A program made the translations under genes and the position numbers. From Candidatus Shapirobacteria bacterium (GTDB taxonomy: Bacteria; Patescibacteriota; Microgenomatia; UBA12405): DNA of 64,000 nucleotides. The notes beneath the pieces were generated by a model. The model saw nothing but the letters and a program-made list of their open reading frames with translations, had not been told where the DNA came from and searched no databases. The stretch spans positions 270,546 through 334,545 of the forward strand of contig JACPHO010000001.1 of the NCBI GenBank assembly GCA_016188545.1. Reading direction: 5' to 3'. Positions 11,604 to 59,373 of this stretch are shown here, one piece after another (position 1 is the stretch's first letter; each line of letters begins with the position of its first letter).

Positions 11604-13775
11604 ATGAATAGTGGTCCTTTTTGGTTAGCCAATATTAGCTCCGAGTCACTTACTGTCTCCTTAATTACATTCGAGCAGAGTTACCGAGTATCTTCAACTG
11701 GTCCAGAAATACCATTTGAACTTAGCCCCAGACATTTTTCCGAAGCGGTTGATCAATCCCTCTCGGCAGCGGCCGAATCGGCCAATCTTGATCCGGATCA
11801 AGAGCCCGACACTATCGCTCTAGTGATTCCGCCGTCTTGGATTGGAATTGACGGTAAAATTTTATCCGATAAACTTAAGCTGTTTGAAGAATTGTTCCGG
11901 GAAATGAAACTTCGTCCCATGGGGTTCATAAGTTATGACGATGCTATTGCTGAAGCCAACAATCAGATAGAAGGCTATCTATCTAGCTTCGTGCTAGTCA
12001 ATTTCCAGCGCGAAGAAATGTATGTGTCACTTATCTATTTGGGTAAGGTGATTGAACGAATTGGAAAAACTATTGTCGGAGAATTCGGCTCAGTCCTTCT
12101 TGAAAACGCATTGCTTGAACTAAAAACAGAATCAACTCTACCTCCACAAATTATCATTACTGGGTCCTACAACGACAACATTCTCAGTAGCATCAAAGCA
12201 CATGCTTGGGTTGGTAGAAAAGATGTCGAAACCTTCCTCCATTTTCCCGATATTAAATCGCATAGCCCTGCGGAATTAACCAGTATTTTTCTTCAAGCTG
12301 TCAGCTCCCAGTTTGATAATTCTCCTTCTTCTACACCTCGTCCTAAAGTCGAACCAGAAGTTGAGGCTACTGTCCCTGTTGGTGAGACCGAAATTATTGA
12401 ACCTGAAGAAGTAATCGTTTCTGAAGAAGTTGCCAATTCTGAACCATATGGAGACGCCGATCTAGTTGAGGTAGACCCAGAAGATATTGGTTTTGCCCCG
12501 ATGGACGATAATTTTTCTCCGGTCGTAGACAGTCCCCAAGCTGTCATTCCCCCAGAACTGGAAGCAGTTCCTATGACTTCAAACATCCCCATAGCTACTA
12601 CCAAGCCAAAAATAAAAATAAATTTTCCCAAAATTAAATTCAGCGCTCCAGCACTGCCAAAACTTCAGTCGAAGACATTGTTGATTCTATTGATGTTCTC
12701 ACCACTTTTAGTTCTAATTCCATTTTTTTATTCAAAAGCGGAGATTACCTTATTCCTCACACCATATAACTTTCAAAAAACCATAACTGCCACTTTTGAC
12801 CCGACAGTCACCGAGGTTGATCTGGGTAAGGGAGTCTTTCCATCACTTAGTTCTGTCAAAGAATTGACTACTTCAGTAACTGTACCCACAACAGGTCAAA
12901 AAACCATCGGTGATCGATCAACTGGCGAAATAGTAATTTATAACAAGTCTGACAAGCCACTTAATCTAAGTAAGGGATCAATATTAAGTGACCAAGGAGC
13001 GCACAAGTTTGAACTCGAAACAGCGATCCAAGTTGCCTCTAGTAGTTCAAATTTTGCTCTAGGGGTGATCAATTTAGGTCAAACTAAAGCCATGATCAAA
13101 GCTGCTGATATCGGACCTGAATTTAACATCGAAAAAGATGTTATGTTGACCTTCAAAGATAACCCAGAAACAACAGTCATTGCCAAAGTTAACTCAACTT
13201 TAGGTGGTGGTAATCGTCGTCAAATAAGGGCTGTGAGTGGTGCTGACAAAACTTCTCTGGACTCAAGGCTTGCTTCAGCAATTGATGCTACTACAGACAA
13301 ATATCTCCAAAGCTCTATTTCCAAAATCCCCAACAGCATCCCTGAGCTGACTCAGACAAAAAAGGGAAGAGTCGAATACAATCGTGAAATCGGTGAAGAA
13401 GCAGACGAGCTTGTCGCTACAGTAACCACGACCATTACCACTTTCTCTCTTAACGACACTCATAAATCCAAGATAATTAATGCATTATTTGCAACAGATC
13501 CTGATTTTGGTAACGTCGTTTCCAACTACGACCAATTCTCCCTAACCATCCAGTCAAAAAACCAAGCCACTTTCGCGGTTCGTTACTTACCTAAAATTGA
13601 CAAAACATCCATCGCCAAGATGATTTCAGGCAAAAGTCAAAAGACAGCCACTTCTCTTATCAAAAAAAATGTCAGGAGAGTCTATAATTATCAGATTGCA
13701 ACAAATCTAAAAGCCATATCTTTTTTCAATCCTCTACCACTTCGGACAGAGAATATTATTATTAATATCAAGTAA
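11604..13775 (+). CDS. Large bitopic membrane protein. The cytoplasmic N-domain is possibly PilM/FtsA-like. It has an acidic P/E-rich linker, one TM helix, and a ~350-aa extracytoplasmic domain.
   Basis: TM LLILLMFSPLLVLIPFFY at about aa 355. The N-domain pattern (IPPSW…LKLRPMGFISYDDAIAEA) weakly resembles PilM. No LPXTG motif. Confidence 0.45.
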   Translation: MNSGPFWLANISSESLTVSLITFEQSYRVSSTGPEIPFELSPRHFSEAVDQSLSAAAESANLDPDQEPDTIALVIPPSWIGIDGKILSDKLKLFEELFREMKLRPMGFISYDDAIAEANNQIEGYLSSFVLVNFQREEMYVSLIYLGKVIERIGKTIVGEFGSVLLENALLELKTESTLPPQIIITGSYNDNILSSIKAHAWVGRKDVETFLHFPDIKSHSPAELTSIFLQAVSSQFDNSPSSTPRPKVEPEVEATVPVGETEIIEPEEVIVSEEVANSEPYGDADLVEVDPEDIGFAPMDDNFSPVVDSPQAVIPPELEAVPMTSNIPIATTKPKIKINFPKIKFSAPALPKLQSKTLLILLMFSPLLVLIPFFYSKAEITLFLTPYNFQKTITATFDPTVTEVDLGKGVFPSLSSVKELTTSVTVPTTGQKTIGDRSTGEIVIYNKSDKPLNLSKGSILSDQGAHKFELETAIQVASSSSNFALGVINLGQTKAMIKAADIGPEFNIEKDVMLTFKDNPETTVIAKVNSTLGGGNRRQIRAVSGADKTSLDSRLASAIDATTDKYLQSSISKIPNSIPELTQTKKGRVEYNREIGEEADELVATVTTTITTFSLNDTHKSKIINALFATDPDFGNVVSNYDQFSLTIQSKNQATFAVRYLPKIDKTSIAKMISGKSQKTATSLIKKNVRRVYNYQIATNLKAISFFNPLPLRTENIIINIK

Positions 13776-26876: not shown

Positions 26877-28319
26877 ATGGCACTGTTTAGCAAACCTCGG
26901 GTTGTAATTTGGCCCAAAGATAATTCTGTAAACATTTATTTAGATCGCACCGAAAATAACATCTTTTCGCTTGACATAAATCTTTGGAAGAGTTGTTCCG
27001 AATCAGATCTCCAGGCATTAAGTACATTGTTTACCGAGCAGGGGATTGATACTGCCACTATTCTCATTCCCGACGATGTTGTTTTTACCAAATCATTTAT
27101 TTATGACTCCGAGATTACCGAAATCGATAAAAACGAAGTTATCGGTCTCGCCAAAAGTTTTATTAGCTTTAAGATCTCACCAGAATACATAAACTACGAT
27201 CTAGTTCAAAGCTCAGGCAAGACAATTATCCAGGCTCGTATTTTTGAAAAATCAAAAATCACCGCTCTTGAGGACAATCTCCGCTCTTTAAATCTAAAAA
27301 CATTTTCATTCGAATCTGTGTCCCAGTCTATTGCCAATATAATTTCCCAAAAATATACCGACCAGTATTTTCTAATTTTTCCTCTTGAGAACAGTGAATA
27401 TCTTTTAATGTTGGCCGCCAAGGATACAATTTACCTTACTTCGATTATCAAAGGTAAAGAGCTTGAGATCCAAAAACTAATAAACTACTCAAAACTATAT
27501 TTTCCGAATATTATCACTAAGATATTTGTTCCCACTGATTTGGCTGCAGACTTAATTGCTACAACCAAACTCGATAAGTCACCCTACAGTCAATCTTCTT
27601 TCGCCACTGAATATAAAAAAACCTCTAATTTACCTGTTCCTGTACTGGGTGTAATGGTTTCAAAATCGTTCCCACCTGGTATAATGAATACATCAGATAC
27701 TAATTCAAGTCAACCAAAAATGGAAAATAAAAAAAACATCCTCCCATTTATAGCTGTTTTTGTAGTTACCGCAGCGCTCGCCTCAATCATTATTTGGTTT
27801 GTATTGAATAAAAACTCCGAAAATACCCCAGAAACTCCTATTGTTGACACTACTCCGACTGTAGTTCAAGAAACGCCTACAGAGGCTCCTACTCCGACAA
27901 TCGCCCCTGTCAGTAAAACTCTCAAGCTCCAAGTCCTCAACGCTACCGATATTAATGGTCAGGCTGCCGTCCTTAAAGAAAAATTAACCAAACTAGGTTT
28001 CACCAGTATTGCCGTAGGTAACTCAAAAGACAAACTTACCGAGAACAAACTCCAGATAAAAGTTTCACAAGCTTCTGCATCTGCTTACTTTGTTCAAGAG
28101 TTAGCGGGATTCTTCGACGTAGTCCCCACTACCGATCTTCCTGAGACTTCCACCTACGACGCCGTATTTTCAATTGGTATTAAGCTTGAGGTTACTGGCG
28201 ATACTTCTATTGCTCCTTCTCTGAAGACTACCGTCACCCCAAGTGCCACTGCTACCAAATCAGCCTCAACTGCCACGCCGACAGCTAAAGCTAATCCTAC
28301 AGTAACCTCCACAGAGTAA
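26877..28319 (+). CDS. Bitopic membrane protein with a C-terminal LytR_C-like domain. The N-domain is possibly PilM-like. It also has a TM helix and a P/T-rich linker.
   Basis: TM ILPFIAVFVVTAALASIIIWFVL. C-terminus LKLQVLNATDINGQAAVLKEKLTKLGF…LQIKVSQAS resembles LytR_C. Confidence 0.45.
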   Translation: MALFSKPRVVIWPKDNSVNIYLDRTENNIFSLDINLWKSCSESDLQALSTLFTEQGIDTATILIPDDVVFTKSFIYDSEITEIDKNEVIGLAKSFISFKISPEYINYDLVQSSGKTIIQARIFEKSKITALEDNLRSLNLKTFSFESVSQSIANIISQKYTDQYFLIFPLENSEYLLMLAAKDTIYLTSIIKGKELEIQKLINYSKLYFPNIITKIFVPTDLAADLIATTKLDKSPYSQSSFATEYKKTSNLPVPVLGVMVSKSFPPGIMNTSDTNSSQPKMENKKNILPFIAVFVVTAALASIIIWFVLNKNSENTPETPIVDTTPTVVQETPTEAPTPTIAPVSKTLKLQVLNATDINGQAAVLKEKLTKLGFTSIAVGNSKDKLTENKLQIKVSQASASAYFVQELAGFFDVVPTTDLPETSTYDAVFSIGIKLEVTGDTSIAPSLKTTVTPSATATKSASTATPTAKANPTVTSTE

Positions 28320-28320
28320 A

Positions 28321-28890
28321 ATGCCTTATACCAGTATCACTGAGACAAAAATCAAAGGTGTCTTTACAATCCAACCCATGGTATTTGGCGACACTCGGGG
28401 TTGGTACCTTCCCGAGCTTGAAGTCTCCGAGCTCGAGGCAGCCATCGGCATCAAACTGGGAATTGCCCAAATTGCCTCATCTTTCAATACCAAGGCTGGT
28501 ATCTTGCGTGGTTTGCATTACCAGAACCCCAACACTCAAGGCAAGTTAGTTCAGGCAGTATCCGGTTCGGTACTTGATGTTGCCGTCGACGTTCGCAAAG
28601 ACTCACCAACGTTTGGGCAACACGTCGCAGTCAAGCTTACTTCACAAGAGCACAACCAGCTTTGGGTTCCCCCGGGCATGGCGCACGGCTATCTTGCGCT
28701 CGAAGAAAACACCCGTTTTTCTTATGTCGTTACTGATAGTGTCTACGACCCAAGTTCTGAAAAAGGAATCAACGCCTTCGATGTTTCCCTTGGAATAAAT
28801 TGGGGAATGACCCGAGAACTAATCGATCTCAAGGAACGCGATCTTCAGTTACCAAATCTCAAAGATATTTCCTTGGAAAATTTACTATGA
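28321..28890 (+). CDS. rmlC: dTDP-4-dehydrorhamnose 3,5-epimerase (cupin)
   Basis: GVFTIQPMVFGDTRGWY…LRGLHYQ…QGKLVQAVSGSVLDVAVDVR RmlC signature. Confidence 0.85.
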   Translation: MPYTSITETKIKGVFTIQPMVFGDTRGWYLPELEVSELEAAIGIKLGIAQIASSFNTKAGILRGLHYQNPNTQGKLVQAVSGSVLDVAVDVRKDSPTFGQHVAVKLTSQEHNQLWVPPGMAHGYLALEENTRFSYVVTDSVYDPSSEKGINAFDVSLGINWGMTRELIDLKERDLQLPNLKDISLENLL

Positions 28891-29753
28891 CCGAAGTTAT
28901 CACTACCGGTCTTAGTGGGTTGGTTGGTTCTCGTCTACTAGAGATCTTTCCTGATTACCGTCTCCAAGACCTCTCTCTCGATTCTGGTCATGACGTTTTA
29001 AAACCAAATACACTTGTCGATACATTTAGCCGGAGTCCTGCCAAAACAGTTCTTCACTTTGCGGCCTTTACGGACACCAATGCCGCGTGGGAACAAAGAG
29101 GCGACAAAAATGGTCTTTGTTATCAGTTAAACGTTATTGGGACTAAAAACATTGCCGACCTTTGTCGCCAGTACCACAAACATCTAATTCACATTTCAAC
29201 CGATTATGTCTTTGATGGTTCAAAAACAACCTCATATACCGAAACTGACACTCTCAACCCTCTCGATTGGTACGCTCAAACAAAATATGATGCCGAAAAA
29301 GTCGTCTCCCCAGAGTTCACTGTTATCCGTATAGCCTCGCCATATCGCGCCATATTTAACGCCAAAATTGATCTAGTCCGAAAAATAATTGGCAAATTAA
29401 AAAACAACGAAGTCTGCAAATTATTTGCAGATCAATATACCACCCCAACCTTCATCGACGACATTGCCATTGGTCTGGGAAAAGTTATTAACAACCCATT
29501 GCTGGGTATTTACCATCTGGTTGGTTCGTCATCACAATCTGTTTATGACATGGGGCAACAGATTGCCAATATTTTTGGTTTTGATCAAAAGTTAATTCAA
29601 CCCTCATCTCTCGCTGACTATCTCAAAACCGACAATGCCCGCCCCTATGCCCCAAACCTGTCACTTTCCAACCAAAAATTTATCGACAACTACAGCTTTA
29701 CCCCCAAAACTCTATCCGAAGGTTTGGCCGAAATGAAAAAACAGCTTACTTAG
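28887..29753 (+). CDS. rmlD: dTDP-4-dehydrorhamnose reductase
   Basis: MTEVITTGLSGLVGSRL N-terminal Rossmann motif. ATGA overlap with rmlC. The ORF-track start at 28800 is rejected. Confidence 0.8.
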   Translation: MTEVITTGLSGLVGSRLLEIFPDYRLQDLSLDSGHDVLKPNTLVDTFSRSPAKTVLHFAAFTDTNAAWEQRGDKNGLCYQLNVIGTKNIADLCRQYHKHLIHISTDYVFDGSKTTSYTETDTLNPLDWYAQTKYDAEKVVSPEFTVIRIASPYRAIFNAKIDLVRKIIGKLKNNEVCKLFADQYTTPTFIDDIAIGLGKVINNPLLGIYHLVGSSSQSVYDMGQQIANIFGFDQKLIQPSSLADYLKTDNARPYAPNLSLSNQKFIDNYSFTPKTLSEGLAEMKKQLT

Positions 29754-30279
29754 TTTTACACAAATCTACTAACGCTAGCCTATGATCCTCATTTCCAATT
29801 TCATCAAGCGGAATTTTGTCAAAATCAAAAAATGCAAAATCTCTAGATTCTTCTGATAATACAATATTTTGATTTTCAGGAAATATTGTTTTATACACTA
29901 TATGTAAAGTTGGATAATCAATATTTTGGAATTTATATAGACCTGGATAAGTTCCAAAATATTCAAACGATAGTACTTTCAGTCCTAGTTCTTCACAAAT
30001 TTCCCTTGAAAGTGCATCAGTTGCAGTTTCTCCTTTCTCCAAAAATCCAGCCGGAATACCCCACTTACCAATTCCTGGATCGTGATTTCTTTTGTCCAAC
30101 AAAACTTGGTTCTTTTTATTCAAAATGATTGCCCCAACGCTTGTTGAAACTGTTATATAAAATTTAAAATCGCATTTTAGACAAAGGTAATAGTTATCTC
30201 CTTTTTTGCTCAGCACTTCTCCGCAACTTGGGCAATATTTGTATTGATAATTGTTTGTCATCTGTCTTCTAGTCTCCAA
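29746..30279 (-). CDS. NUDIX hydrolase with N-terminal C4 zinc ribbon (NudC-like architecture)
   Basis: CPSCGE…CLKCDF, then Nudix box GFLEKGETATDALSREICEELGL. Confidence 0.7.
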   Translation of the reverse strand: METRRQMTNNYQYKYCPSCGEVLSKKGDNYYLCLKCDFKFYITVSTSVGAIILNKKNQVLLDKRNHDPGIGKWGIPAGFLEKGETATDALSREICEELGLKVLSFEYFGTYPGLYKFQNIDYPTLHIVYKTIFPENQNIVLSEESRDFAFFDFDKIPLDEIGNEDHRLALVDLCKTK

Positions 30280-30293
30280 CTATTAATTCTGTT

Positions 30294-31490
30294 TTATTCA
30301 TGACCAGATAATATCATTTTAGCCACTTTTTCTCCCTCTCTCACCGCAAAGTTTGTTCCCCTATCTTCTGGATAAATCATCGCAAAATTCGCCTGAAACA
30401 CATTTGTTTTTATTTTTGAATTTTGAATTTTGAATTTTCGTGTAACGACATGTTGGGCGTTCTTAAATTTCCATAGCCATTTGTCTACTACCATTTTTTT
30501 ATCAAAGTTCGGGAAAACTTTCTTCAGATAGTCAAACCATTCGTTAATAATCACACTATCCTTTTCAACAAAGTTCTTGTGCTCATGGGGAACATACACC
30601 CCCATGTAATAAACATTTTTATTTCCATATTGCTTTTTATCAACCAAGTTTGTGTGTTGAATAAAGGCCAGAAAAGGGGATCTATTGTCATTTATATTAT
30701 GCCAATAATACTTACTTAAGCTTTGTTTGGAGGTAAAAACCAAACACACCGCCCCCAAATAATCAACCTCTTTACTCGGCCCAGTCAGAAGTAATTTGTC
30801 AAATTTTTCCTGTCCTATTCTTAAATCATATTTCTTAAATCTTATTTCAGAATTCAAAGAAATCCGTCCACCATTTTCTCGAATTCGTCTTGCTAGTTCA
30901 TCAGCAATAATCCTAAAACCACCGTTAAAATATCCCAGTTTTCCCGAATTTCCTCGGGTATGAATCCTTGCCCATAGCCATGCCATCGACACATCTTTAT
31001 ATCTTTCATGAAATTTACCTTTCAAAAGTGGTTCCCAGATCACCTTGTAGGCTCTCTCCCCACACCACTTCTTCATCCATTGGTATGCCAATTGGTCGGC
31101 ATATTTTTCCCAGTTATTGTCTTTCTCCAAAAGAATTTTTACTACCCCTAGTCGTATTTTTGAAATAAGCGACAGTGGTTTGAACTTAAGAAGATCGACC
31201 GCGCCCATGAATGGATAGACAGTTCCATCATAATACAAACTTGTTTTTTCCGGATACCATTCCAATTTATCCATTAATCCTAGCTCTTTAGTTAGATCAA
31301 TAATGTGGCTATCAGTTGTAAATATATGATGGTAAGCCTTTTCCAAACTCGTTTTACCAATAGTGAATCCGCCCATTAGTCCACCAATATCACCACCCTT
31401 CTCGAATATTGTAACCAAATGTCCTTTTTGACTTAATCTGTACCCAGCTACTAATCCGGTCAACCCGGCTCCGATTATCGCAATTTTCAT
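30294..31490 (-). CDS. FAD-dependent oxidoreductase (amine-oxidase/UDP-galactopyranose-mutase-like fold)
   Basis: MKIAIIGAGLTGLVAGYRL…IFEKGGDIGGL dinucleotide-binding motif. Confidence 0.6.
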   Translation of the reverse strand: MKIAIIGAGLTGLVAGYRLSQKGHLVTIFEKGGDIGGLMGGFTIGKTSLEKAYHHIFTTDSHIIDLTKELGLMDKLEWYPEKTSLYYDGTVYPFMGAVDLLKFKPLSLISKIRLGVVKILLEKDNNWEKYADQLAYQWMKKWCGERAYKVIWEPLLKGKFHERYKDVSMAWLWARIHTRGNSGKLGYFNGGFRIIADELARRIRENGGRISLNSEIRFKKYDLRIGQEKFDKLLLTGPSKEVDYLGAVCLVFTSKQSLSKYYWHNINDNRSPFLAFIQHTNLVDKKQYGNKNVYYMGVYVPHEHKNFVEKDSVIINEWFDYLKKVFPNFDKKMVVDKWLWKFKNAQHVVTRKFKIQNSKIKTNVFQANFAMIYPEDRGTNFAVREGEKVAKMILSGHE

Positions 31491-31570
31491 GAATTAGTTT
31501 AGCAGACAAAATGTAATATCCAGTTTAAACTACTACTATGAGGAGAGGTAATAGACACATTATATTGCCT

Positions 31571-31584
31571 ATAATATTATAGTC
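31571..31584. promoter_or_regulatory. Perfect 14-bp palindrome CTATAATATTATAG in divergent promoter region
   Basis: Self-complementary. The TGCTATAAT extended -10 follows at 31585-31593. Confidence 0.35.
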
Positions 31585-31619
31585 TGCTATAATTAATACA
31601 TACTAGATAAGTATATTTT

Positions 31620-31976
31620 ATGTCCAATCGTCTCCAAACAAAACTCGAGATAAACTGTGTTCGGCTTTTAGTTGGTCGAGAGAACGAAACTCTGGGTATG
31701 AAAATATCTGATCTGCCCACCGGACACCGGGTTGATTTGCCTCAACTTGAAGCGGCTCACATCCTAGCACTTATCGGTCACAAAAGGGGGGAAATAGTCC
31801 TGTTACTTAATTCAAATGTGGGTTCTGTTACTGTAAGTGACTTACCCGACTCGAGAGTTGAGAAGATGGACACATTCCCATTTTTGGTCAAGGTAAGCAA
31901 AGTTAAACCAGGGGAAAATTTTAATGTTACGTTTGGAGCTCAAGTAGTAAACTTCGTCACTCAGGATGTTATCTGA
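31620..31976 (+). CDS. Hypothetical protein (118 aa)
   Basis: ORF only, followed by a terminator. No recognisable motif. Confidence 0.3.
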   Translation: MSNRLQTKLEINCVRLLVGRENETLGMKISDLPTGHRVDLPQLEAAHILALIGHKRGEIVLLLNSNVGSVTVSDLPDSRVEKMDTFPFLVKVSKVKPGENFNVTFGAQVVNFVTQDVI

Positions 31977-32083: not shown

Positions 32084-34189
32084 ATGGCCGACGCTATTAA
32101 GCTCTCCAAAAACCGCGATGTCAGCATGGATCATGTCCGTAACATCGGTATTATTGCCCATATTGACGGAGGTAAGACCACCACTACCGAACGTCTACTT
32201 TTCTATACAGGAAAAATTCACAAAATTGGTTCTGTTGATGCCGGTACTACTACTACCGACACCATGGTGCAGGAACGGGAGAGGGGAATTACTATCCAGT
32301 CAGCTTGCGTCACCACTTTTTGGCATGACTACCGCATCAACATTATCGATACTCCCGGCCATGTCGATTTTACTGCCGAGGTAGAACGTTCCCTACGTGT
32401 CCTCGACGGTGCTATCATGATTTTCGATGGCAATGCTGGGGTTCAAGCTCAATCCGAAACTGTTTGGCGTCAGGCCGACAAATACGGGGTGCCCCGTTTG
32501 GCTTTTGTCAACAAAATGGACAAAGTTGGTGCATCTTTCCAAGGTACTCTCGACTCCATCACTCAAAAACTTCACGCCCCAATTGTCGCCATGGTCTTAC
32601 CTCTTGGTGAAGAACATGCCCATGTTGGTGTCATCGACCTGATGGAAATGAAGATGATTGTCTACGATAAAGATCCTGAAGGTATGGAGTTCACCGTCAA
32701 AGATGTCACTCCCGATTATCTCGATGCTGCCAAAGCTGCTCGGGCCAAGATGGTTGAAAAAATCGCCGGAGAGGACGAACACCTTATGGAGAAATACCTT
32801 AGTGATGAGGAAATATCCATTCCAGAGCTTAAAAAAGCCCTTCGTAAAGCCACTATCGATCGTAAATTATTCCCAGTATTCTGTGGTGCTGCTTGGAGAA
32901 ACAAAGGAATCCATCCAATTTTGGATGCAATTGTTGACTATCTGCCTTCCCCCACTGACCTTCCCCCGATAGAAGGGTTTGATATCAATACTCAAGAAAA
33001 AATTACCAGAAAACCGATCAAGTCAGAACCACTATCAGCCATGCTTTTTAAAGTCCAGTCCGATGCTCATGTCGGAACACTTTCCTACGTCCGTGTCTAT
33101 TCCGGTACTATCAGATCAGGTTCTGATGTCTACAATGCTACCAAGCAAAAGACCGAAAGAATCGGTCGTTTGTTGCTAATGCATGCTGACAAAAGAGAGG
33201 GGATCGAAGAGGGTTTTGCTGGAGAAATAATTGCCTGTATCGGTCTAAAAGAGTCCACCACCGGTGATACACTTTGTGACAAAAGTGCCCCAATTTCTCT
33301 ATCTCCAATTCAATTCTCCGAACCAGTTATCTCCCTTTCAATCGAACCTGAAACTGCCGATGATCAGGAGAAAATGGGTGCAGCCCTCAACCGTCTTGCT
33401 ATCGAGGATCCCACCTTCAAAGTTTCCTACAACCACGAAACCGGTCAGACCATTATCGCCGGTATGGGCGAACTTTACCTCGATATTATCGTCGATCGTC
33501 TTCGCCGAGAATTCAACGTCGGCGTCAAGACCGGTGCCCCCCAAGTTGCTTATCGCGAAACTATTTCCGAAAATGCCGAAGGTGAGGGTAAATACATTCA
33601 TCAGTCCGGTGGTCATGGTCAGTATGGTCATTGTAAAGTTAAGGTCGAACCAAAAAACCGTGGCGAAGGTATCGAGTTCGTCAACGGTATCAAGGGTGGG
33701 GTCATTCCTGCCAACTTCGTCCCCGCCATCGAAAAGGGTGTTCGCGAAGCCCTTGCCAAGGGTATCATCGCTGGCTATCCCTGTACCGATATCAAAGTCA
33801 CTGTCTATGATGGTTCCTACCACGATGTTGACTCATCAGAAGCCGCTTTCAAACTAGCTGGTTCTTATGCCATCAAAGACGCCTTCCAAAAAGCTCGACC
33901 ACTTGTACTAGAACCCATCATGAAGATGGAGGTCGCCACCCCATCCGAATTCCAAGGAACAGTTATTGGAGATCTTGCCGCCCGACGTGGTCAGGTTAGT
34001 GGAACCACCGATTCTATGGGTTTTACTACCATTATTGCCTTAATACCATTGGAAATGGTGCGAGGTTACGCTACTGTCATCCGTTCCCTCACTCAAGGAC
34101 GTGGTTCATTCTATATGGAACCGGCACAATACGATCCAGTACCCCGTGACGTTCAGGAGAAGTTGACCATCAAACCTGGAAAAGAATAG
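32084..34189 (+). CDS. fusA: Elongation factor G
   Basis: AHIDGGKTTTTE G1 and DTPGHVDF G3 motifs. 701 aa. Confidence 0.95.
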   Translation: MADAIKLSKNRDVSMDHVRNIGIIAHIDGGKTTTTERLLFYTGKIHKIGSVDAGTTTTDTMVQERERGITIQSACVTTFWHDYRINIIDTPGHVDFTAEVERSLRVLDGAIMIFDGNAGVQAQSETVWRQADKYGVPRLAFVNKMDKVGASFQGTLDSITQKLHAPIVAMVLPLGEEHAHVGVIDLMEMKMIVYDKDPEGMEFTVKDVTPDYLDAAKAARAKMVEKIAGEDEHLMEKYLSDEEISIPELKKALRKATIDRKLFPVFCGAAWRNKGIHPILDAIVDYLPSPTDLPPIEGFDINTQEKITRKPIKSEPLSAMLFKVQSDAHVGTLSYVRVYSGTIRSGSDVYNATKQKTERIGRLLLMHADKREGIEEGFAGEIIACIGLKESTTGDTLCDKSAPISLSPIQFSEPVISLSIEPETADDQEKMGAALNRLAIEDPTFKVSYNHETGQTIIAGMGELYLDIIVDRLRREFNVGVKTGAPQVAYRETISENAEGEGKYIHQSGGHGQYGHCKVKVEPKNRGEGIEFVNGIKGGVIPANFVPAIEKGVREALAKGIIAGYPCTDIKVTVYDGSYHDVDSSEAAFKLAGSYAIKDAFQKARPLVLEPIMKMEVATPSEFQGTVIGDLAARRGQVSGTTDSMGFTTIIALIPLEMVRGYATVIRSLTQGRGSFYMEPAQYDPVPRDVQEKLTIKPGKE

Positions 34190-34289
34190 GAATTTACCTA
34201 GAGCTTTCCGATGAAGACATGGTCATCTCTCACTGAATCTTTGGGCAGTTTGTGTTACAATTAATACTATTAATTAAGCGTTTAAAAAT

Positions 34290-34817
34290 ATGGCAAACAA
34301 CAGCGACAGAAGGATAGATAGACCAACTGATGTTTTGTATGTAATTAATGAAATAAACAGTGAACATGACGTGCCACCATCATATGTCTTAGCCCAAGAG
34401 TTAATAAATAAATATCCCAATTCACTCACGGTTATTGATCGGGATATAATTCCCCTTATCCTAAGTCGATCAGGTGACCCCAAATCACGAACTATATACA
34501 TCAATGATGTTGGCATTTTTATTTTAACCAGCAACCCTACTTTAGATGCCTCTGAGCAAGCGTGGAAAATGTTTAATGAAAACAATGCTATTGACCACAA
34601 ACTAGTATTAGTATCCAACAATAATGATGAATATATTCCTACAGGTGAATTTACCCAACAAACTGGGATTATTTCCATTACTCACTTAAATCTAGATCAA
34701 ATAAAAAATAAGCCAAGATCAAAAGACGCTAAGCTAATCAACGACATTCTTTCACAGGCTGATCGAAGAGGTAGGATGGCATTGCCTCCGTCGAGTAATT
34801 ACCTATCTCAAACATAG
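34290..34817 (+). CDS. Hypothetical protein (175 aa)
   Basis: ORF only. First gene of the fusA-tuf insertion. Confidence 0.35.
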   Translation: MANNSDRRIDRPTDVLYVINEINSEHDVPPSYVLAQELINKYPNSLTVIDRDIIPLILSRSGDPKSRTIYINDVGIFILTSNPTLDASEQAWKMFNENNAIDHKLVLVSNNNDEYIPTGEFTQQTGIISITHLNLDQIKNKPRSKDAKLINDILSQADRRGRMALPPSSNYLSQT

Positions 34818-34869
34818 CTCAGAATCCAATTTTGATGTAATATGTGTTATTAATCACAAAAAAAATAAA

Positions 34870-35382
34870 ATGATGGTTCTGGACATCGAGACAATATCCG
34901 CCACCTTAGGAAAATCAGTTGAAAAAGATAGGACTACCCTTGAAGGTCTGGTTATGTCTACAATGCTTGAATTATCAACACAATATCCAAAAGGCCTAGG
35001 TTTGGCTGCCGATGGTGACAATTTCTTGCTAGTGTCTCCACACGTTGATTCTCATGGTGAAGTTGTTTTAGCTACTGAAACTGGTGTCTATATTCTCGAA
35101 CAAGATAAATTAGATGCAAAAGCCCACAATCTCGACAGGATTGTTGGTGCCATCAGTGGTGCTATTACCACCGCCAAACAACTTGTCGCCAAAATTCCTC
35201 AAGACGACTACGAATCCCACCAAGATTTAAAAGATAATGGTTTATTTATCAACGCAGTAACACAAGTAAACATTGCTGATAAAGAATCACCAAATTTCCA
35301 AAAAATGGTTGAACTTGTTAAAGACATGTCAAAATTCAGAGCCTCAATTGACTCTGCCAGGCTCGCCACTACTGAGAAATAA
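34870..35382 (+). CDS. Hypothetical protein, paralog of N-half of 36905-37864
   Basis: About 50% identity with the 36905 product over about 150 aa. Example: LELSTQYPKGLGLAADGDNFLLVSPHV versus LELSTEYPKGLGLSGTEENFLLVSPHV. Confidence 0.45.
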   Translation: MMVLDIETISATLGKSVEKDRTTLEGLVMSTMLELSTQYPKGLGLAADGDNFLLVSPHVDSHGEVVLATETGVYILEQDKLDAKAHNLDRIVGAISGAITTAKQLVAKIPQDDYESHQDLKDNGLFINAVTQVNIADKESPNFQKMVELVKDMSKFRASIDSARLATTEK

Positions 35383-35419
35383 TTAAAAAATAAATCCTCT
35401 AATGGTCCGGTAGTTTTTA

Positions 35420-35851
35420 TTGACAATCACTTCACAAAGTCCTATAATACATCAAATGAAAACAAATCAAACTGAAAAAATCAGTGCACTTTTGGAACAT
35501 CAGAAATCTCTTGTCGAACAGTCCACAATTGTCGACTTTAAGTTAGCTTTGGAAAAATGGAAAATACTGATTGAAGTTGCTCGTGAATCAGAAGCTATTC
35601 ACAATAGCGGTGTCTGGATGACAAAAAAAGACGGTACTTTTGTCCATTTTGAATCAAACCATGGTTGCTTTATAAATGTAACTCAACATCCAGAACTTAA
35701 ACACCAATCATACAACTTCGCTCAAGGTGCCACAGGTGAACACTTTGTATTTGAATTCAACCTAGAACATACAGAAGTTGTCAGAGTTGAGTCCCATAAC
35801 ACAAAAAAAATGCAAAAAAAAATATCAGCTGGGAGGCTATACTGGTGGTGA
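35420..35851 (+). CDS. Hypothetical protein (143 aa). A8/A9 homopolymer runs near the 3' end.
   Basis: ORF only. Poly-A tracts at 35803-35822. Confidence 0.3.
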   Translation: MTITSQSPIIHQMKTNQTEKISALLEHQKSLVEQSTIVDFKLALEKWKILIEVARESEAIHNSGVWMTKKDGTFVHFESNHGCFINVTQHPELKHQSYNFAQGATGEHFVFEFNLEHTEVVRVESHNTKKMQKKISAGRLYWW

Positions 35852-35999
35852 CCATTTTAGGTTCATAACTTTAAAATCAACACAGACTATTGTTGAGGGT
35901 TTTAAAAGGGGATTTCCTGTGGAGGAATTTAAATCTTTGGTTGATAACATTGGGTCTCCAGAAAGTAATTAGGTAGCAAATCATATTCAGAAAAACTGT

Positions 36000-36013
36000 C
36001 CATCAAACCAGGT
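36000..36013 (+). repeat. 14-bp direct repeat CCATCAAACCAGGT (left copy)
   Basis: Exact copy also at 36715-36728. The pair brackets the RelB/RelE-like cassette. Confidence 0.5.
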
Positions 36014-36130
36014 GGTAAAAATAAATGTCATTTCCGCAATTCTTTTTGTCATTCCCATGAAGGCGGGAATCCAGATCTAAATCATCATCATTTTCCCCAG
36101 TTTTGAGCCTGTCGAAGTGGCGATAGTGTC

Positions 36131-36158
36131 TTGACAAATAATATCAAAATAGTATAAT
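36131..36158 (+). promoter_or_regulatory. Consensus sigma70 promoter TTGACA-16 bp-TATAAT. The antitoxin ATG lies 6 nt downstream, so the transcript is probably leaderless.
   Basis: -35 at 36131-36136, -10 at 36153-36158, ATG at 36165. Confidence 0.5.
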
Positions 36159-36164
36159 CATATT

Positions 36165-36434
36165 ATGAAAACGACTATCCAAGTCCCCGTCGACAAAAAT
36201 TTAAAAACAATTTACGAAAATAACGCTGATAAGTTAGGCTATTCTTCACTGCAAGAATATATTCGTGTGTTTCTGAAACAAAACTTAGGCCAGGACAATG
36301 TTGAATACTTAACTCCACAAGAAGAAAAAAAGCTTCTTCAAATGTCTCGCGCCTCCGATCGGGAAATTAAAAAAGGTAATTTCATCAAAAGTAGTAATAT
36401 TGACGAATTAATGGCATACTTAAACAGTGCCTGA
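36165..36434 (+). CDS. RelB/DinJ-family (ribbon-helix-helix) antitoxin
   Basis: N-terminal beta strand TIQVPVD followed by helices. 89 aa. 8-nt overlap with the downstream toxin. Confidence 0.55.
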   Translation: MKTTIQVPVDKNLKTIYENNADKLGYSSLQEYIRVFLKQNLGQDNVEYLTPQEEKKLLQMSRASDREIKKGNFIKSSNIDELMAYLNSA

Positions 36435-36699
36435 AATTATTTTTGATCGTTTATTTCGTCGTCATTTTGATTCACGTCAATTTTCCAAAAAAATTACAGC
36501 AAAATTTAATGAAAGAGTAAAAGTTTTCTCCCGTAATCCAGAATCAATCCTGCTTAATGACCATCCACTTAGAGGTAACCTAAGTGGTTATAGAGCATTT
36601 TCTATTACCAAAGATATCCGCGTGGTATATCAAATAATTGATGACAATCTTGTTCGTTTTCTAAATATCGGCACCCACAACCAGGTTTATGGAAAATAG
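36427..36699 (+). CDS. RelE/ParE-family type II toxin
   Basis: …LNDHPLRGNLSGYRAFSITKDIRVVYQIIDDNLVRFLNIGTHNQVYGK matches the RelE/ParE C-terminal pattern. GTG start. Confidence 0.65.
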   Translation: MPEIIFDRLFRRHFDSRQFSKKITAKFNERVKVFSRNPESILLNDHPLRGNLSGYRAFSITKDIRVVYQIIDDNLVRFLNIGTHNQVYGK

Positions 36700-36714
36700 A
36701 CCGAGAAAAGTCGC

Positions 36715-36728
36715 CCATCAAACCAGGT
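36715..36728 (+). repeat. 14-bp direct repeat CCATCAAACCAGGT (right copy)
   Basis: Exact match to 36000-36013. Lies 15 nt after the toxin stop. Confidence 0.5.
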
Positions 36729-36790
36729 AAGGAATAACCGCCAAAAACGTCATCGCGAGAAACGAAGTGACGAAGCAATCAGTGTATTAA

Positions 36791-36815
36791 GCCCCGGCTC
36801 CGGCCGGGGTTTTTG
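36791..36815 (+). terminator. Rho-independent terminator
   Basis: CCCCGGC-TCCG-GCCGGGG followed by TTTTT. Confidence 0.7.
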
Positions 36816-36904
36816 TGATATATTCTACTTATTACGGTTAAAGTATAAAATTTCAAACCGATAAATTGCTAGAAATATATTTTATATAAATTAATTATTC
36901 CAAT

Positions 36905-37864
36905 ATGCTAAATCTAGTCCCCGAAGAAGTGTCAGCTGTTATAAGTAGTTCAATAGAAAAAAATGTATCACCACAAGAAACAAAGGTGATGTCAAGGGTT
37001 CTTGAACTTTCGACTGAGTACCCAAAAGGATTGGGCTTGTCTGGAACTGAAGAAAATTTTTTACTCGTATCACCTCATGTGGGCGTAGACGGGAAATCTG
37101 TCCTGGCTACAGAAACAGGTATTTATATTATTAAACAGCAGAAATTAGAAGCAGGAGCAGGTAACAATGATCGAATGGTAAATGTGATTAGTGGTGCTGT
37201 CGAAGCGACTAAGAAACTCGTTTCTGCTATTCCTACTGATGATTTTGAGACAAAATTTCCACCCAAAGTAAATGGGCTTTTTGTCGAGTCAATAACCCAA
37301 GTCAATTTAGACGATCCAGATTCTGATACACATCAAGAGATGGTCGGGCTAATTAAAGAGATGTCACGATTTAGAGCGTCTGCTGATGCCAGGAGAAATG
37401 ATAATCAAACTGAAGAATCTGTGCGAACCACGAGTCCAGTGGAAGCTCTTGCAAAGGTTTTTATAGATACCTATGAAGATAGAGATGATGTTGCTGTCAA
37501 TAATTACTCTTGGGTTGCTAGTACTGACAGGTGGCATCCTGGACTATTTGAAATATTCGGAGATCACAATAAGCAACTAACTAATGCGATAAAAACCATT
37601 GACGCTGATCAAGATGGAAATCGTTTGTGGATTGTTGGCGGTGTCATGGCGGTTGTTAATTATCCAGATGAAATTTCTAAGTCTGGTGATGCTGGACTTA
37701 ATTTATATCAGGCTTTAAACGAAGCACGGCGCTCTAGCGATAAACGCTATGAAGGTGATATGAATGGGAGAAAGTTGGTGATCAACATTTGCCAAGTGGA
37801 ACAACCAGATCGAGTTCCAGAAAAACTAATCGAATCATTGTTGAGCAGTAGAAGCGAGTCATAG
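36905..37864 (+). CDS. Hypothetical protein (319 aa). The N-half is paralogous to 34870-35382. It also has a unique C-terminal ~160-aa domain.
   Basis: See paralog alignment. No recognisable motif. Confidence 0.45.
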   Translation: MLNLVPEEVSAVISSSIEKNVSPQETKVMSRVLELSTEYPKGLGLSGTEENFLLVSPHVGVDGKSVLATETGIYIIKQQKLEAGAGNNDRMVNVISGAVEATKKLVSAIPTDDFETKFPPKVNGLFVESITQVNLDDPDSDTHQEMVGLIKEMSRFRASADARRNDNQTEESVRTTSPVEALAKVFIDTYEDRDDVAVNNYSWVASTDRWHPGLFEIFGDHNKQLTNAIKTIDADQDGNRLWIVGGVMAVVNYPDEISKSGDAGLNLYQALNEARRSSDKRYEGDMNGRKLVINICQVEQPDRVPEKLIESLLSSRSES

Positions 37865-37955
37865 TGACATCTTTGCAATGAATGTGAATTTGTATCATTA
37901 AATAATTAAGAAATTAAGTGAAGCTCTAACTTAGAATTTTGAACATATTTCATTC

Positions 37956-37984
37956 TTGCAAACCCAAAACCTTACTGCTACAAT
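37956..37984 (+). promoter_or_regulatory. Sigma70-like promoter TTGCAA-17 bp-TACAAT upstream of tuf
   Basis: Read directly. Lies 80 nt upstream of the tuf ATG. Confidence 0.4.
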
Positions 37985-38064
37985 CTTAAAGCGTTTTTCG
38001 CTATACTTAATAGTTATAAATTCTTCCGACTTTGTCGTCGGATAATAAAATCAAATCAAAATAT

Positions 38065-39237
38065 ATGGCTGATGCATATAAAAGAACCAAACCCCATGTC
38101 AACGTCGGTACTATTGGTCACGTCGATCATGGTAAAACTACTTTAACCGCCGCAATTTCCAAAGTTCAAGGAAGTGCCAAATCTTACGCAGATATTGCTA
38201 AGGGTGGTACCGTCCGCGATGCTTCCAAGATTGTTACTATCGCTATCTCCCACATCGAATACGAAACCGATGCCCGTCATTATGCTCATATCGACTGTCC
38301 GGGACATGCCGACTATGTCAAGAACATGATTACCGGTGCTGCCCAAATGGATGGCGCTATTCTCGTTGTTTCTGCACCAGACGGTCCAATGCCTCAAACC
38401 AGAGAGCACGTTCTACTTGCCAAGCAAGTCAACGTTCCCTCTCTGGTCGTTTTCTTAAACAAAGTTGATTTGGTCACCGACCCAGAGTTCCTCGACCTAG
38501 TCGAAATGGAAATCCGTGATCTTCTTACCAAATACGGCTACCCAGGTGATACCACTCCAATCGTTCGTGGATCTGCTCTAAAGGCACTCAATGGCGAGGC
38601 TGAAGGTGTCGAATCTATCAAGAAATTGATGGAGGCACTTGATTCCTACATTCCCGAGCCCAAGCGCGAACTTGATCAGCCTTTCCTCATGCCTATTGAG
38701 GATGTCTTCTCCATCAAGGGTCGCGGTACTGTTGCTACCGGAAGAATCGAAAGGGGAGTTATCAAAGTCAACGAAGAAATCGAAATCGTCGGTCTTCGTG
38801 ATACCAAAAAAGCTGTTGTTACTGGTGTCGAAATGTTCCACAAATCACTTGACCAAGGTCAAGCTGGTGACAATGTCGGTATCCTGCTCCGCGGAGTTGA
38901 AAAAGACGATATCGAAAGGGGACAAGTGTTAGCCAAAATTGGCTCTATCACCCCTCACACCGAGTTCAAGGCTGAAGTTCTACTTCTCAAAAAAGAAGAA
39001 GGTGGTCGTCATACTCCAATCTTCAATGGTTATCGTCCCCAAGTCTTTTTGAAGACTACTGACGTTACCGGAGATCTTACTCTTCCAGAAGGTATGGAAA
39101 TGGTCATGCCAGGTGATAATGCAAATGTCGTCATCAAGCTGATTAAAGCTGTAGCCATGGAAAAGGGTCAACGCTTCGCTATCCGCGAAGGTGGATTGAC
39201 AGTTGGTGCCGGTGCTATCACCGAGATCATCAAATAA
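38065..39237 (+). CDS. tuf: Elongation factor Tu
   Basis: [31 protein letters not shown] motifs. ATG at 38065 preferred over the ORF-track TTG at 38032. Confidence 0.95.
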
Positions 39238-58249: not shown

Positions 58250-58275
58250 ATTAGAAATTAAATTCTTAATTGTTA
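58250..58275 (+). repeat. AATTCTTAATT-type element upstream of recA
   Basis: aaattaaattcttaattgttaattaac, related to the heptamer tracts. Confidence 0.35.
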
Positions 58276-58284
58276 ATTAACAAA

Positions 58285-59373
58285 GTGGCCAAAAAAGCAA
58301 AGTCCGGAAAGACTCCTATAACAATCAATACCAAAACCAACGACTCTCTTCATACCAAGAAACTAGAAGCAGTTCGATTGGCGATGGACCAGATCACCAA
58401 GTCATATGGTGAAGGTGCCATTATGAAAATGGGTGACAAGCAAGCAGACATGAAGGTAGAAGTTATCCCAACCGGCTGTCTTCCACTTGATGTCGCCCTG
58501 GGAGTTGGTGGACTACCTCGTGGACGTATCGCCGAAATCTTTGGGCCCGAGGCCTCTGGTAAGACCACGATTGCCCTTCATCTAATTAAGGAAGCCCAGC
58601 GTCTGGGTGGTACTGCCGCCTTCATCGATGCTGAGCATGCCCTTGATCCACTTCGTGCCCAAACAATTGGAGTCGATCTTGACAATCTTTTACTTTCCCA
58701 ACCAGACAATGGTGAGCAAGCCCTGGAGATTGTCGATACCTTGGTTCGCAGTAATGCCGTCGATATTATCGTCGTCGATTCTGTTGCCGCCCTAGTTCCT
58801 AAGGCTGAAATTGAAGGCGAAATGGGGGATTCGATGATGGGTGTCCAGGCTAGACTTATGTCTCAAGCACTTCGCAAGTTGACTGGTGCTATTAGCAAGT
58901 CAAAGTCAGTGGTCTTGTTTACAAACCAAATGCGCCAAAAGATAGGCATAATGTTTGGTAACCCTGAGACCACTCCCGGTGGTTTGGCTCTAAAATTCTA
59001 CTCTTCAGTCCGTATCGACGTTCGTAAGATTGCCAATATTAAGACTCCTGGTGGTGAAGCTGTCGGTTCACAGCACCGTGCCCGAATAGTCAAGAATAAA
59101 GTCGCTCCACCATTCAAAGAGGCCGAGTTCGATATTATGAACACTGAAGGTATTTCTGTCTACGGAAGTCTAGTAGATCTGGCGGTTACTCATGGTTTGA
59201 TCACCAAAGCCGGTGCATTCTTCAAGATCAATGATCAAAACATCCAAGGTCGTGAAGGCGCCAAGAAATACCTAAAGGAAAACCAAGTCACCACAGATGA
59301 GTTAACTACCAAGATTTGGGAAGTCATCAAGAATCCCGTCACCAAAGATGCAGATCATAACGATCAGTCCTAG
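58285..59373 (+). CDS. recA: Recombinase RecA
   Basis: …[12 protein letters not shown]… Walker A and L1/L2 loops. GTG at 58285 gives a K-rich N-extension. The alternative ATG is at 58384. Confidence 0.9.

Follow-up and report, generated by a model that had tools for sequence, protein, structure and literature searches.

The spacer between the elongation-factor genes fusA and tuf was analysed in a 64-kb chromosome segment of Candidatus Shapirobacteria bacterium (Patescibacteria), hereafter called the window, in which a toxin-antitoxin (TA) module was found enclosed by two direct repeats derived from the 3′ end of fusA. With high confidence, these repeats are displaced fusA ends that mark an insertion/deletion polymorphism between this genome and its relatives. 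Overall, the spacer presented three alternative fusA-downstream arrangements in tandem, head to tail, each of them starting with a fusA 3′ end. The complete account, in which fusA-end relics were stacked by recombination around a functional TA module and which includes the mechanism proposed below, is put forward more tentatively, at slightly under an even chance.

Relic fusA ends downstream of the live gene

To begin with, the gene order in the window was rpoB-rpoC-rpsL-rpsG … fusA (32084-34189) … tuf (38032-39237), with the S10 ribosomal-protein operon coming next. In most bacteria tuf appears directly after fusA; here, the distance between both genes was 3,842 nt. A 14-mer, CCATCAAACCAGGT, was present in exactly two copies in the 64 kb (36000-36013 and 36715-36728), the second of which began 15 nt after the toxin stop codon (36697-36699), in agreement with the original prediction, which had taken the pair as the borders of a single inserted TA cassette. 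Moreover, a variant with two mismatches was found at 34167-34180, where it forms the core of the live fusA end of the window, and the 14-mer itself formed the central part of a three-copy family of 32-nt repeats (repeat finder, family D1), the reference copy being the fusA 3′ end (34157-34188). This longer three-copy repeat had been missed by the original prediction, as had the two inserted segments, a second leaderless-type promoter (35420-35448) and the fact that the antitoxin belongs to no sequence family. The features concerned are the following:

32084-34189, + strand: fusA, elongation factor G (EF-G, 701 aa), with all EF-G Pfam domains found
34157-34189, + strand: R1, live fusA 3′ end (…EKLTIKPGKE, then stop), containing CCATCAAACCTGGA; reference copy of the repeat
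35983-36025, + strand: R2, relic fusA 3′ end (EKLSIKPGGKN…, stop codon lost), containing the first 14-mer
36705-36737, + strand: R3, relic fusA 3′ end (EKSPIKPGKE, TAA stop), containing the second 14-mer
36787-36848, + strand: ancestral fusA terminator block, 92% identical to positions 12123-12184 of the related genome L003, the first 48 nt being identical

The three copies were similar, in frame, over the final 33-53 nt of fusA, a stretch interrupted by mismatches and an indel; they are not identical, and their differences are partly synonymous. When aligned in the fusA frame (35990-36022 for the 33-nt stretch of R2), R2 and R3 matched the fusA tail of the window at 21/33 and 26/33 positions, respectively, the best of 200 spacer shuffles reaching 22/33. 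With respect to the clade consensus GAAAAACTGACCATCAAACCAGGTAAAGAATAA, R1 differed at 6 of the 33 positions (five synonymous changes and one altering the stop codon), R2 agreed at 23 of 24 positions in GAAAAACTGTCCATCAAACCAGGT, and the 3′ part of R3 agreed at 22 of 23 positions with the L003 fusA end and the consensus. Furthermore, R2 was 84% identical to the fusA end of L003 over 44 columns. The exact 14-mer is the fusA sequence of three relatives (L003, L097 and L099), and in ~1.4 Mb of related loci it was found only at those three fusA 3′ ends and at the two sites in the contigs of this genome. It is therefore not a common genomic word, and a chance repeat, which had already been judged very unlikely, was excluded by the 14-mer counts and the shuffles.

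The EF-G tail IKPGKE was restricted to a small clade comprising the window, L003/L097/L099, L095 and L107, the tails of other Shapirobacteria being different; as the tail is clade-specific, all the repeat copies derive from within the clade. Judged by their sequences, R1, R2 and R3 each look like a coherent allele, and R2 and R3 are non-functional displaced copies of the last 33-53 nt of fusA. No fusA-tail repeats were detected in ten other GTDB-representative Shapirobacteria/Woesebacteria lineages with a long or open-ended fusA-tuf spacer, and no relic was seen beside the TA module in L083, L086 and L089 or upstream of it in L107 and L108.

Empty sites were looked for in related genomes and found in four of them (L003, L097, L099 and L095), where the fusA stop codon was followed, after 16-19 nt, by the terminator seen after R3 in the window. 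This terminator, present at 36791-36815 as originally described, consists of a stem (36792-36798 paired with 36803-36809) and a T-run (36810-36814). In L003, TTAAGCCCCGGCTCCGGCCGGGGTTTTTGTGATATATTCTACTTATTA appeared 16 nt past the fusA stop, and 48 of 48 positions were identical to window 36787-36834, while the terminator stem of L095 carried a compensatory G>A / C>T change. R3 occupies, relative to the terminator, the position of the fusA stop in these four genomes, and this layout indicates that R3 and the terminator are the ancestral fusA end, displaced downstream. The DNA added in the window relative to the empty-site genomes amounted to 2,548 nt. Thus, the originally proposed insertion stood as an insertion/deletion polymorphism with repeats at its junctions, but not as a single cassette, since the 14-mers bracket only one of two inserted segments. 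The direction of the change could be a gain in the window lineage or a loss in the relatives through recombination between repeats.

A sub-threshold Rfam match to the small RNA RsmY was also found at 36717-36812 (22.6 bits vs. a gathering threshold of 57, E = 0.014), spanning R3, a short motif and the terminator, and its most likely cause is the terminator hairpin together with stretches that contain GGA. At the gathering threshold, Rfam returned only a distant tRNA, all other matches being sub-threshold ones retained by E-value.

The former neighbourhood of R2 was found in L107, the fourth lineage of the clade, in which the order was fusA stop, 8 nt, GTCATTCCCGCGCAGGCGGGAATCC, terminator, TA promoter and TA genes. 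Its series of fusA end, GTCATTCCC…GGGAATCC hairpin and TA is collinear with the window series of R2, GTCATTCCCATGAAGGCGGGAATCC and TA promoter, and this collinearity identifies R2 as the fusA end that formerly preceded the TA module. Likewise, L026 presented a fusA stop, a GTCATTGCGAG…GAAGCAATC motif and a terminator, the same series as R3, the short motif downstream of it and the terminator in the window.

Regarding the reliability of the structure, the region was 100% identical in two independent assemblies from other sequencing runs (L001 and L002; 6-10 kb), both 14-mers being present, and this identity indicates that it is not an assembly artefact. Exact-protein look-ups with the toxin, orf175 and the 319-aa protein gave no population variants, the sole arrangement being that of the window. 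In base composition, the island was not distinguishable from other non-ribosomal DNA.

The toxin-antitoxin module and its promoter

The cargo of the middle block would be, judged by sequence families and conservation, an ordinary, functional type II TA module whose toxin is predicted to act as a ribosome-dependent mRNA endonuclease, and it is a new member of the kind that combines a YafQ/RelE toxin with a ribbon-helix-helix antitoxin. Its features are as follows:

36131-36158, + strand: TA promoter, TTGACA-16 nt-TATAAT, matching 12 of 12 consensus positions
36165-36434, + strand: antitoxin (89 aa), ribbon-helix-helix and DinJ/RelB-like according to its predicted structure
36427-36699, + strand: toxin (90 aa), YafQ/RelE family, GTG start, 8-nt overlap with the antitoxin

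The RelE/ParE assignment of the toxin was borne out by scores above the cut-offs for PF15738 (37.3 bits, cut-off 30) and TIGR02385 (RelE_StbE; 42.7 bits, cut-off 27.9), while the YafQ-specific subfamily model TIGR00053 gave 45.6 bits, below its cut-off of 87.25. The matches in PDB were YoeB, YafQ and HP0894. Of the YafQ residues, H50, D67 and H87 were invariant in the toxin subfamily, H63 was changed to a conserved Ser, and F91 to Tyr. Catalytic residue sets vary within the RelE superfamily.

In the case of the antitoxin, no Pfam match was found for the protein or among its 19 homologues, TIGR02384 reached 13.5 bits (cut-off 45.65), and the profile had no sequence match in PDB. An AlphaFold2 model based on the 19 homologues (predicted local distance difference test, pLDDT, 74.6; predicted template-modelling score, pTM, 0.36) showed two helices, preceded by an extended N-terminal stretch and followed by a C-terminal arm, also helical. 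The best Foldseek matches of this model were weak, with DinJ of the Vibrio cholerae DinJ-YafQ complex in first place (E 0.05), followed by NikR, Arc and omega, all of them ribbon-helix-helix proteins. The secondary structure of this model is compatible with a DinJ-like ribbon-helix-helix antitoxin: the fold originally predicted fits, but it was reached through structure prediction and weak structural matches, with no support from any sequence family.

The TA pair was conserved in six other lineages (L083, L086, L089, L084, L107 and L108). The ratio of nonsynonymous to synonymous substitution rates (dN/dS) was 0.08-0.14 in all measurable comparisons except one (0.37 for the toxin against L108), with saturated dS, and by these ratios both TA genes are under purifying selection. 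The closest homologues (57-79% identity for the toxin and 64-82% for the antitoxin) were all located between fusA and tuf, at varying positions relative to other cargo, while those at ~50% identity were located elsewhere; overall, at least seven lineages carried the subfamily in their fusA-tuf spacer. Plasmids contained toxin relatives of at most 35% identity and no antitoxin homologue, and viral contigs contained a single distant toxin match and no relatives of orf175 or orf131.

In the six other lineages, conservation of the unit began at the −35 box and ended at the toxin stop codon, the DNA on either side being unrelated and free of repeats. Since orthologous units have unrelated flanks, the TA module carries no recombination site of its own, which argues against the recombination sites at the cassette ends that had been suggested. 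Moreover, R2 lies 105 nt upstream of the conserved unit and R3 only 5 nt downstream of it.

The perfect promoter, the overlapping reading frames and the antitoxin ATG 6 nt past the −10 hexamer (36165) were all as originally described, and the choice of this ATG as start codon is supported by the invariant N-terminal sequence MKTTIQVP. The −10 box and the start codon are both covered by an inverted repeat, TAATAT-N15-ATATTA. The promoter, its spacer and this inverted repeat were nearly invariant in the same six lineages even though synonymous sites were saturated, and the distance from the −10 box to the ATG was 6 nt in five lineages and 12 nt in one. From this geometry, the TA transcript is inferred to be leaderless, and the module is probably autorepressed at the inverted repeat. 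A second perfect promoter, TTGACA-17 nt-TATAAT (35420-35448), was found 7 nt before the ATG of orf131 (35456-35851), which belongs to no known family. When the 64 kb were scanned for leaderless-type promoters (TTGAYA-N16-18-TANAAT with a start codon within 3-12 nt and an open reading frame, ORF, of at least 40 aa), only the orf131 and antitoxin sites were obtained, both of them inside inserted DNA.

Among the closest known systems is DinJ-YafQ of Escherichia coli and V. cholerae, which shares with the window module the antitoxin gene upstream of an overlapping toxin gene of ~90 aa, a toxin passing both PF15738 and TIGR02385 and keeping H50, D67, H87 and a C-terminal aromatic residue, and, according to the model, a ribbon-helix-helix antitoxin with a C-terminal arm whose best, although weak, structural match is DinJ. 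In contrast, the catalytic His63 of YafQ is Ser throughout the window subfamily, and the window antitoxin has neither detectable sequence similarity to the DinJ/RelB families nor a plasmid homologue. Furthermore, the window module is located on a Patescibacterium chromosome, between the two elongation-factor genes, and the position of its promoter would give a leaderless transcript.

Stacked arrangements and how they may have formed

The window spacer was divided into three consecutive blocks: the live end R1 with orf175, a 170-aa protein and orf131; R2 with a hairpin and the TA cassette; and R3 with a short motif, the ancestral terminator, a 319-aa protein and tuf. The remaining features of these blocks are listed below:

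34190-35982, + strand: segment 1 cargo, with orf175 (34290-34817), the 170-aa paralogue (34870-35382), the second promoter (35420-35448) and orf131 (35456-35851)
36048-36072, + strand: hairpin motif GTCATTCCCATGAAGGCGGGAATCC between R2 and the TA promoter, which folds as a hairpin and is unique in the window
36749-36780, + strand: short motif GTCATCGCGAG…GACGAAGCAATC between R3 and the terminator
36905-37864, + strand: resident 319-aa protein of no known function, upstream of tuf in the clade
37933-39237, + strand: conserved tuf promoter and leader, then tuf (EF-Tu); right border of the variable spacer

Segment 1 was absent from L003, L095, L097, L099 and L107, and its products orf175, the 170-aa protein and orf131, together with the 319-aa protein and orf64, matched no family in Pfam, NCBIfam, PADLOC or PHROGs. 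The resident 319-aa protein was 64% identical to its orthologue in L095/L094, 28% to a 318-aa protein of L003, and 54% to the 170-aa paralogue of segment 1, which corresponds to its N-terminal domain only. This family of 318-319 aa is clade-specific, has no Pfam domain and adjoins tuf on the upstream side (L003 12192-13148; L095 4186-5145), with only two database proteins matching; compared at the sequence level, it is evolving very fast (28-64% identity, while EF-G maintained 94-96%). As segment 1 carries a paralogue of the resident spacer gene, its origin points to the same locus of a relative. A simple tandem duplication of a unit running from the repeat to the cargo was also considered and was ruled out, as the sequences upstream of R2 and R3 were unrelated and the paralogues were only 54% identical.

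The short motif after R3 was absent from L003, L095 and L099, and a motif of its type was found in L026, where it separates the fusA stop from the terminator, and in L108, 8 nt past the toxin stop. More generally, 'GTCAT…AATC' motifs were observed in two flavours, GTCATTCCC-loop-GGGAATCC and GTCATTGCGAG-variable-GAAGCAATC, at window 36048-36072 and 36749-36780, L107 5898-5922, L108 1713-1754 and L026 1691, 8866 and 12158. They appeared just past gene ends and ahead of terminators in several Shapirobacteria, the first flavour forming a clear hairpin in L107 (z = −3.9), and they may be dispersed elements resembling repetitive extragenic palindromes (REP) or miniature inverted-repeat transposable elements (MITE). 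No Rfam family matched them, and a literature word search for GTCATTGCGAG gave only unrelated primer matches.

We infer that the stacking arose from recombination with DNA of related Shapirobacteria that was one-sided, anchored by homology and additive. One end of the incoming DNA would have crossed over in a conserved flanking gene, fusA for segment 1 and probably tuf for the block formed by R3 and the terminator, while the other end would have been joined illegitimately, no more than ~50 nt ahead of a fusA stop codon belonging to the resident gene in the case of segment 1 and to the donor in that of the R3 block. In this way, new DNA would be added instead of swapped and a short fusA-tail relic left behind; only short relics would survive because long direct repeats would be quickly deleted by RecA, whose gene is present in the window (58270-59373). 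The old fusA terminator would then serve to end the TA mRNA. That the relics are still so close to the consensus speaks for young junctions.

In line with a crossover in tuf, the tuf leader and the first ~270 nt of tuf (37933-38330 vs. L003 13199-13600) were 96-98% identical to L003, while the rest of tuf was ~90% and fusA 85% identical. Within tuf, mismatches to L003 numbered 9/270 in the first ~270 nt and 87/936 in the rest (Fisher p = 0.0008). The R3 core, the terminator and the ~270 nt at the 5′ end of tuf were thus more similar to L003 than the genome average, which suggests a recombination tract shared with the L003 clade beside the variable spacer.

Homology-facilitated illegitimate recombination during natural transformation has been described in Acinetobacter and Streptococcus pneumoniae. 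It shares with the process proposed here one homologous anchor in a conserved gene and one illegitimate join, and it can leave a short duplicated piece of the recipient. In the present case, which is known from its sequence, neither a donor nor microhomology at the joins was found.

Several observations weigh against stacking by recombination. No donor genome was found, nor any intermediate genome with only one of the two relics, so that the order and the direction of the events are reconstructed. Two independent illegitimate joins, both at most ~50 nt from a fusA stop, would be a coincidence only partly explained by selection against long repeats. Moreover, R2 and R3 are near consensus despite the saturated synonymous sites of the TA genes, which would require very recent events or selection on the sites, as a site-specific system predicts, and the last 11-21 fusA codons were in the top 5-7% of windows for synonymous-site conservation in L003, L095 and L107. 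A mosaic tract was undetectable in fusA, all the lineages being about equally distant (~85%), and the signal of the tuf tract was moderate (p ~ 1e−3). Finally, the recombinase search covered 64 kb of the ~564-kb contig.

Site-specific accretion is the principal rival and is considered rather unlikely. It would have the fusA 3′ end acting as attB for two successively integrated elements that lack an integrase, similar to cis-mobilizable elements (CIMEs), and carry a fusA-like attP, with the integrase supplied in trans or since lost, and with R1 as attL, R2 as an internal att site and R3 as attR. Indeed, the layout is the textbook signature of elements at the 3′ ends of housekeeping genes with tandem accretion and decayed elements, as in the integrative element ICESt1 and its related CIME at fda of Streptococcus thermophilus (PMC5704250). 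As in those systems, the 3′ end of the target gene is found within the direct repeats, an intact copy of the gene is retained, relatives have empty sites, and two tandem blocks without integrase are separated by an internal repeat. An identical core of 10-14 nt between divergent arms, the near-consensus relics, the unusually conserved synonymous sites at the live fusA ends in L003, L095 and L107, and the self-sufficient consensus promoters of both segments also fit accretion.

The genes found at the locus speak otherwise: family searches of the island, of the DNA inserted between rpsG and fusA and of all window ORFs of integrase size revealed no integrase, transposase, excisionase or other mobility gene, and no oriT was visible at the locus, in contrast to integrative elements and CIMEs. 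Membership of that group also found no support in the form of a cognate recombinase or of an attP-bearing viral contig, as none of the 2.9 million viral contigs carried the fusA-tail site. Furthermore, the repeats were confined to one lineage, being absent from the ten other lineages and from the vicinity of the TA module in L083, L086 and L089; the orthologous TA units have no common flanking site; the cargo looks less like that of a mobile element than like alternative alleles of this locus; and the L003-like tuf tract would be left unexplained.

The reverse direction of change, in which the array (or at least the series of fusA, TA and R3) is ancestral and the relatives with 'empty' sites lost it through direct-repeat recombination, appears improbable. 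Deleting the DNA from R1 to R3 would restore precisely the junction of fusA and terminator seen in L003, L095 and L099, one or two losses would suffice given that the window, L003, L095 and L107 are roughly equidistant, and the presence of the TA module in at least seven lineages, with a divergence of 63-76% protein identity and saturated dS, fits a long stay at the locus. However, relics as old as the clade should have decayed, as third-codon identity between lineages was ~0.55-0.66, but R2 and R3 maintained 23/24 and 22/23 of the consensus positions, respectively. In addition, the event that created the repeats would still be needed, and the other TA-bearing lineages examined had no fusA-tail repeat beside the module.

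More doubtful than this is a bolder form of site-specific integration, in which the last ~25 nt of fusA would be the attachment site of an undescribed Patescibacteria system stacking minimal integrase-less cassettes with leaderless promoters in the str operon, the TA module then stabilising or regulating the platform. Such a system predicts both that the relics stay near consensus and that synonymous conservation is above average in the live fusA ends, and, if it existed, it would be an integron-like platform anchored on an essential translation gene. Chromosomal integrons resemble the window in having a small promoter-containing TA unit within an array of unrelated small cargo at a fixed chromosomal point, but they differ from it in that no attC-like site was found at the ends of the TA unit, where the flanks of orthologues are unrelated, and in that the window contains no IntI or attI.

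We give very little credence to a selected functional cis-element, such as a site for RNA processing or regulation at the 3′ ends of operons, or to pure chance. The near-consensus core shared by the relics and the live fusA ends of three lineages, together with the weak RsmY-like match (36717-36812), could be read as signs of a cis-element; on the other hand, the live fusA end of the window has two substitutions in the core, no Rfam family reached its threshold, and the EF-G reading frame and stop codon preserved in the copies only make sense for former gene ends, chance being excluded by the 14-mer counts and shuffles given above. Least credible of all is the transposable TA cassette with a 14-bp target-site duplication of the original prediction, as the two exact direct 14-mers do flank a self-contained two-gene unit, but belong to three non-identical, in-frame copies of the tail of the neighbouring gene, one of them being the live fusA end, which extend over 33-53 nt with mismatches and an indel and lie at unequal distances from the conserved TA unit (105 and 5 nt), without transposase, integrase or terminal inverted repeats bracketing it.

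The fusA-tuf spacer in related genomes and its meaning

Among related Shapirobacteria and Woesebacteria, the fusA-tuf spacer was either 87-230 nt or 1.1-3.8 kb long. The longer spacers contained cargo that was unrelated between genomes and mostly unannotatable, and no repeats were found in spacers other than that of the window. The spacer is thus a family-wide hot spot of gene gain and insertion inside the str operon. To mention other cargo, the spacer of L014 contained a 412-aa membrane protein on the opposite strand, and that of L089 contained proteins of 271 and 552 aa. At the protein level, EF-G of the window was 96% identical to that of L003, 96.6% to that of L107 and 94% to that of L095, while nucleotide identity of fusA was 86% between the window and L107 and ~85% throughout between the four lineages (window, L003, L095 and L107).

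In another interruption of the str operon, rpsG was separated from fusA by ~5 kb of non-ribosomal genes (window 26877-31976). These encode a LytR_C-domain protein, a dTDP-4-dehydrorhamnose epimerase and reductase, a NUDIX hydrolase, an amine oxidase-like flavoprotein and a 118-aa ORF, of which the NUDIX hydrolase and amine oxidase-like genes are on the minus strand and also appeared upstream of fusA in L086 and L089. Regarding the right border of the spacer, the ORF finder placed the tuf start at a TTG (38032), while the gene calls on the identical contigs placed it at an ATG 33 nt later (38065; 390 aa). The latter is probably the real start, as the 33 nt upstream are out of frame in L094.

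To our knowledge, fusA has not been reported as an integration target, and the literature search yielded no paper on fusA as a site of TA modules or integrative elements in the Candidate Phyla Radiation. The findings do not overturn current understanding, as they represent a tidy but unexceptional gene gain at a recombination hot spot. The TA subfamily, whose antitoxin is not recognized by sequence searches, is tied to one locus across Candidatus Shapirobacteria, and its conserved consensus promoter, placed for leaderless translation, provides a convenient test case in uncultured bacteria. Moreover, the displaced gene ends are scars that record two gene gains in the window genome. They show how a very small, streamlined Patescibacteria genome gains genes, with the spacer between the highly conserved fusA and tuf serving as a landing pad.

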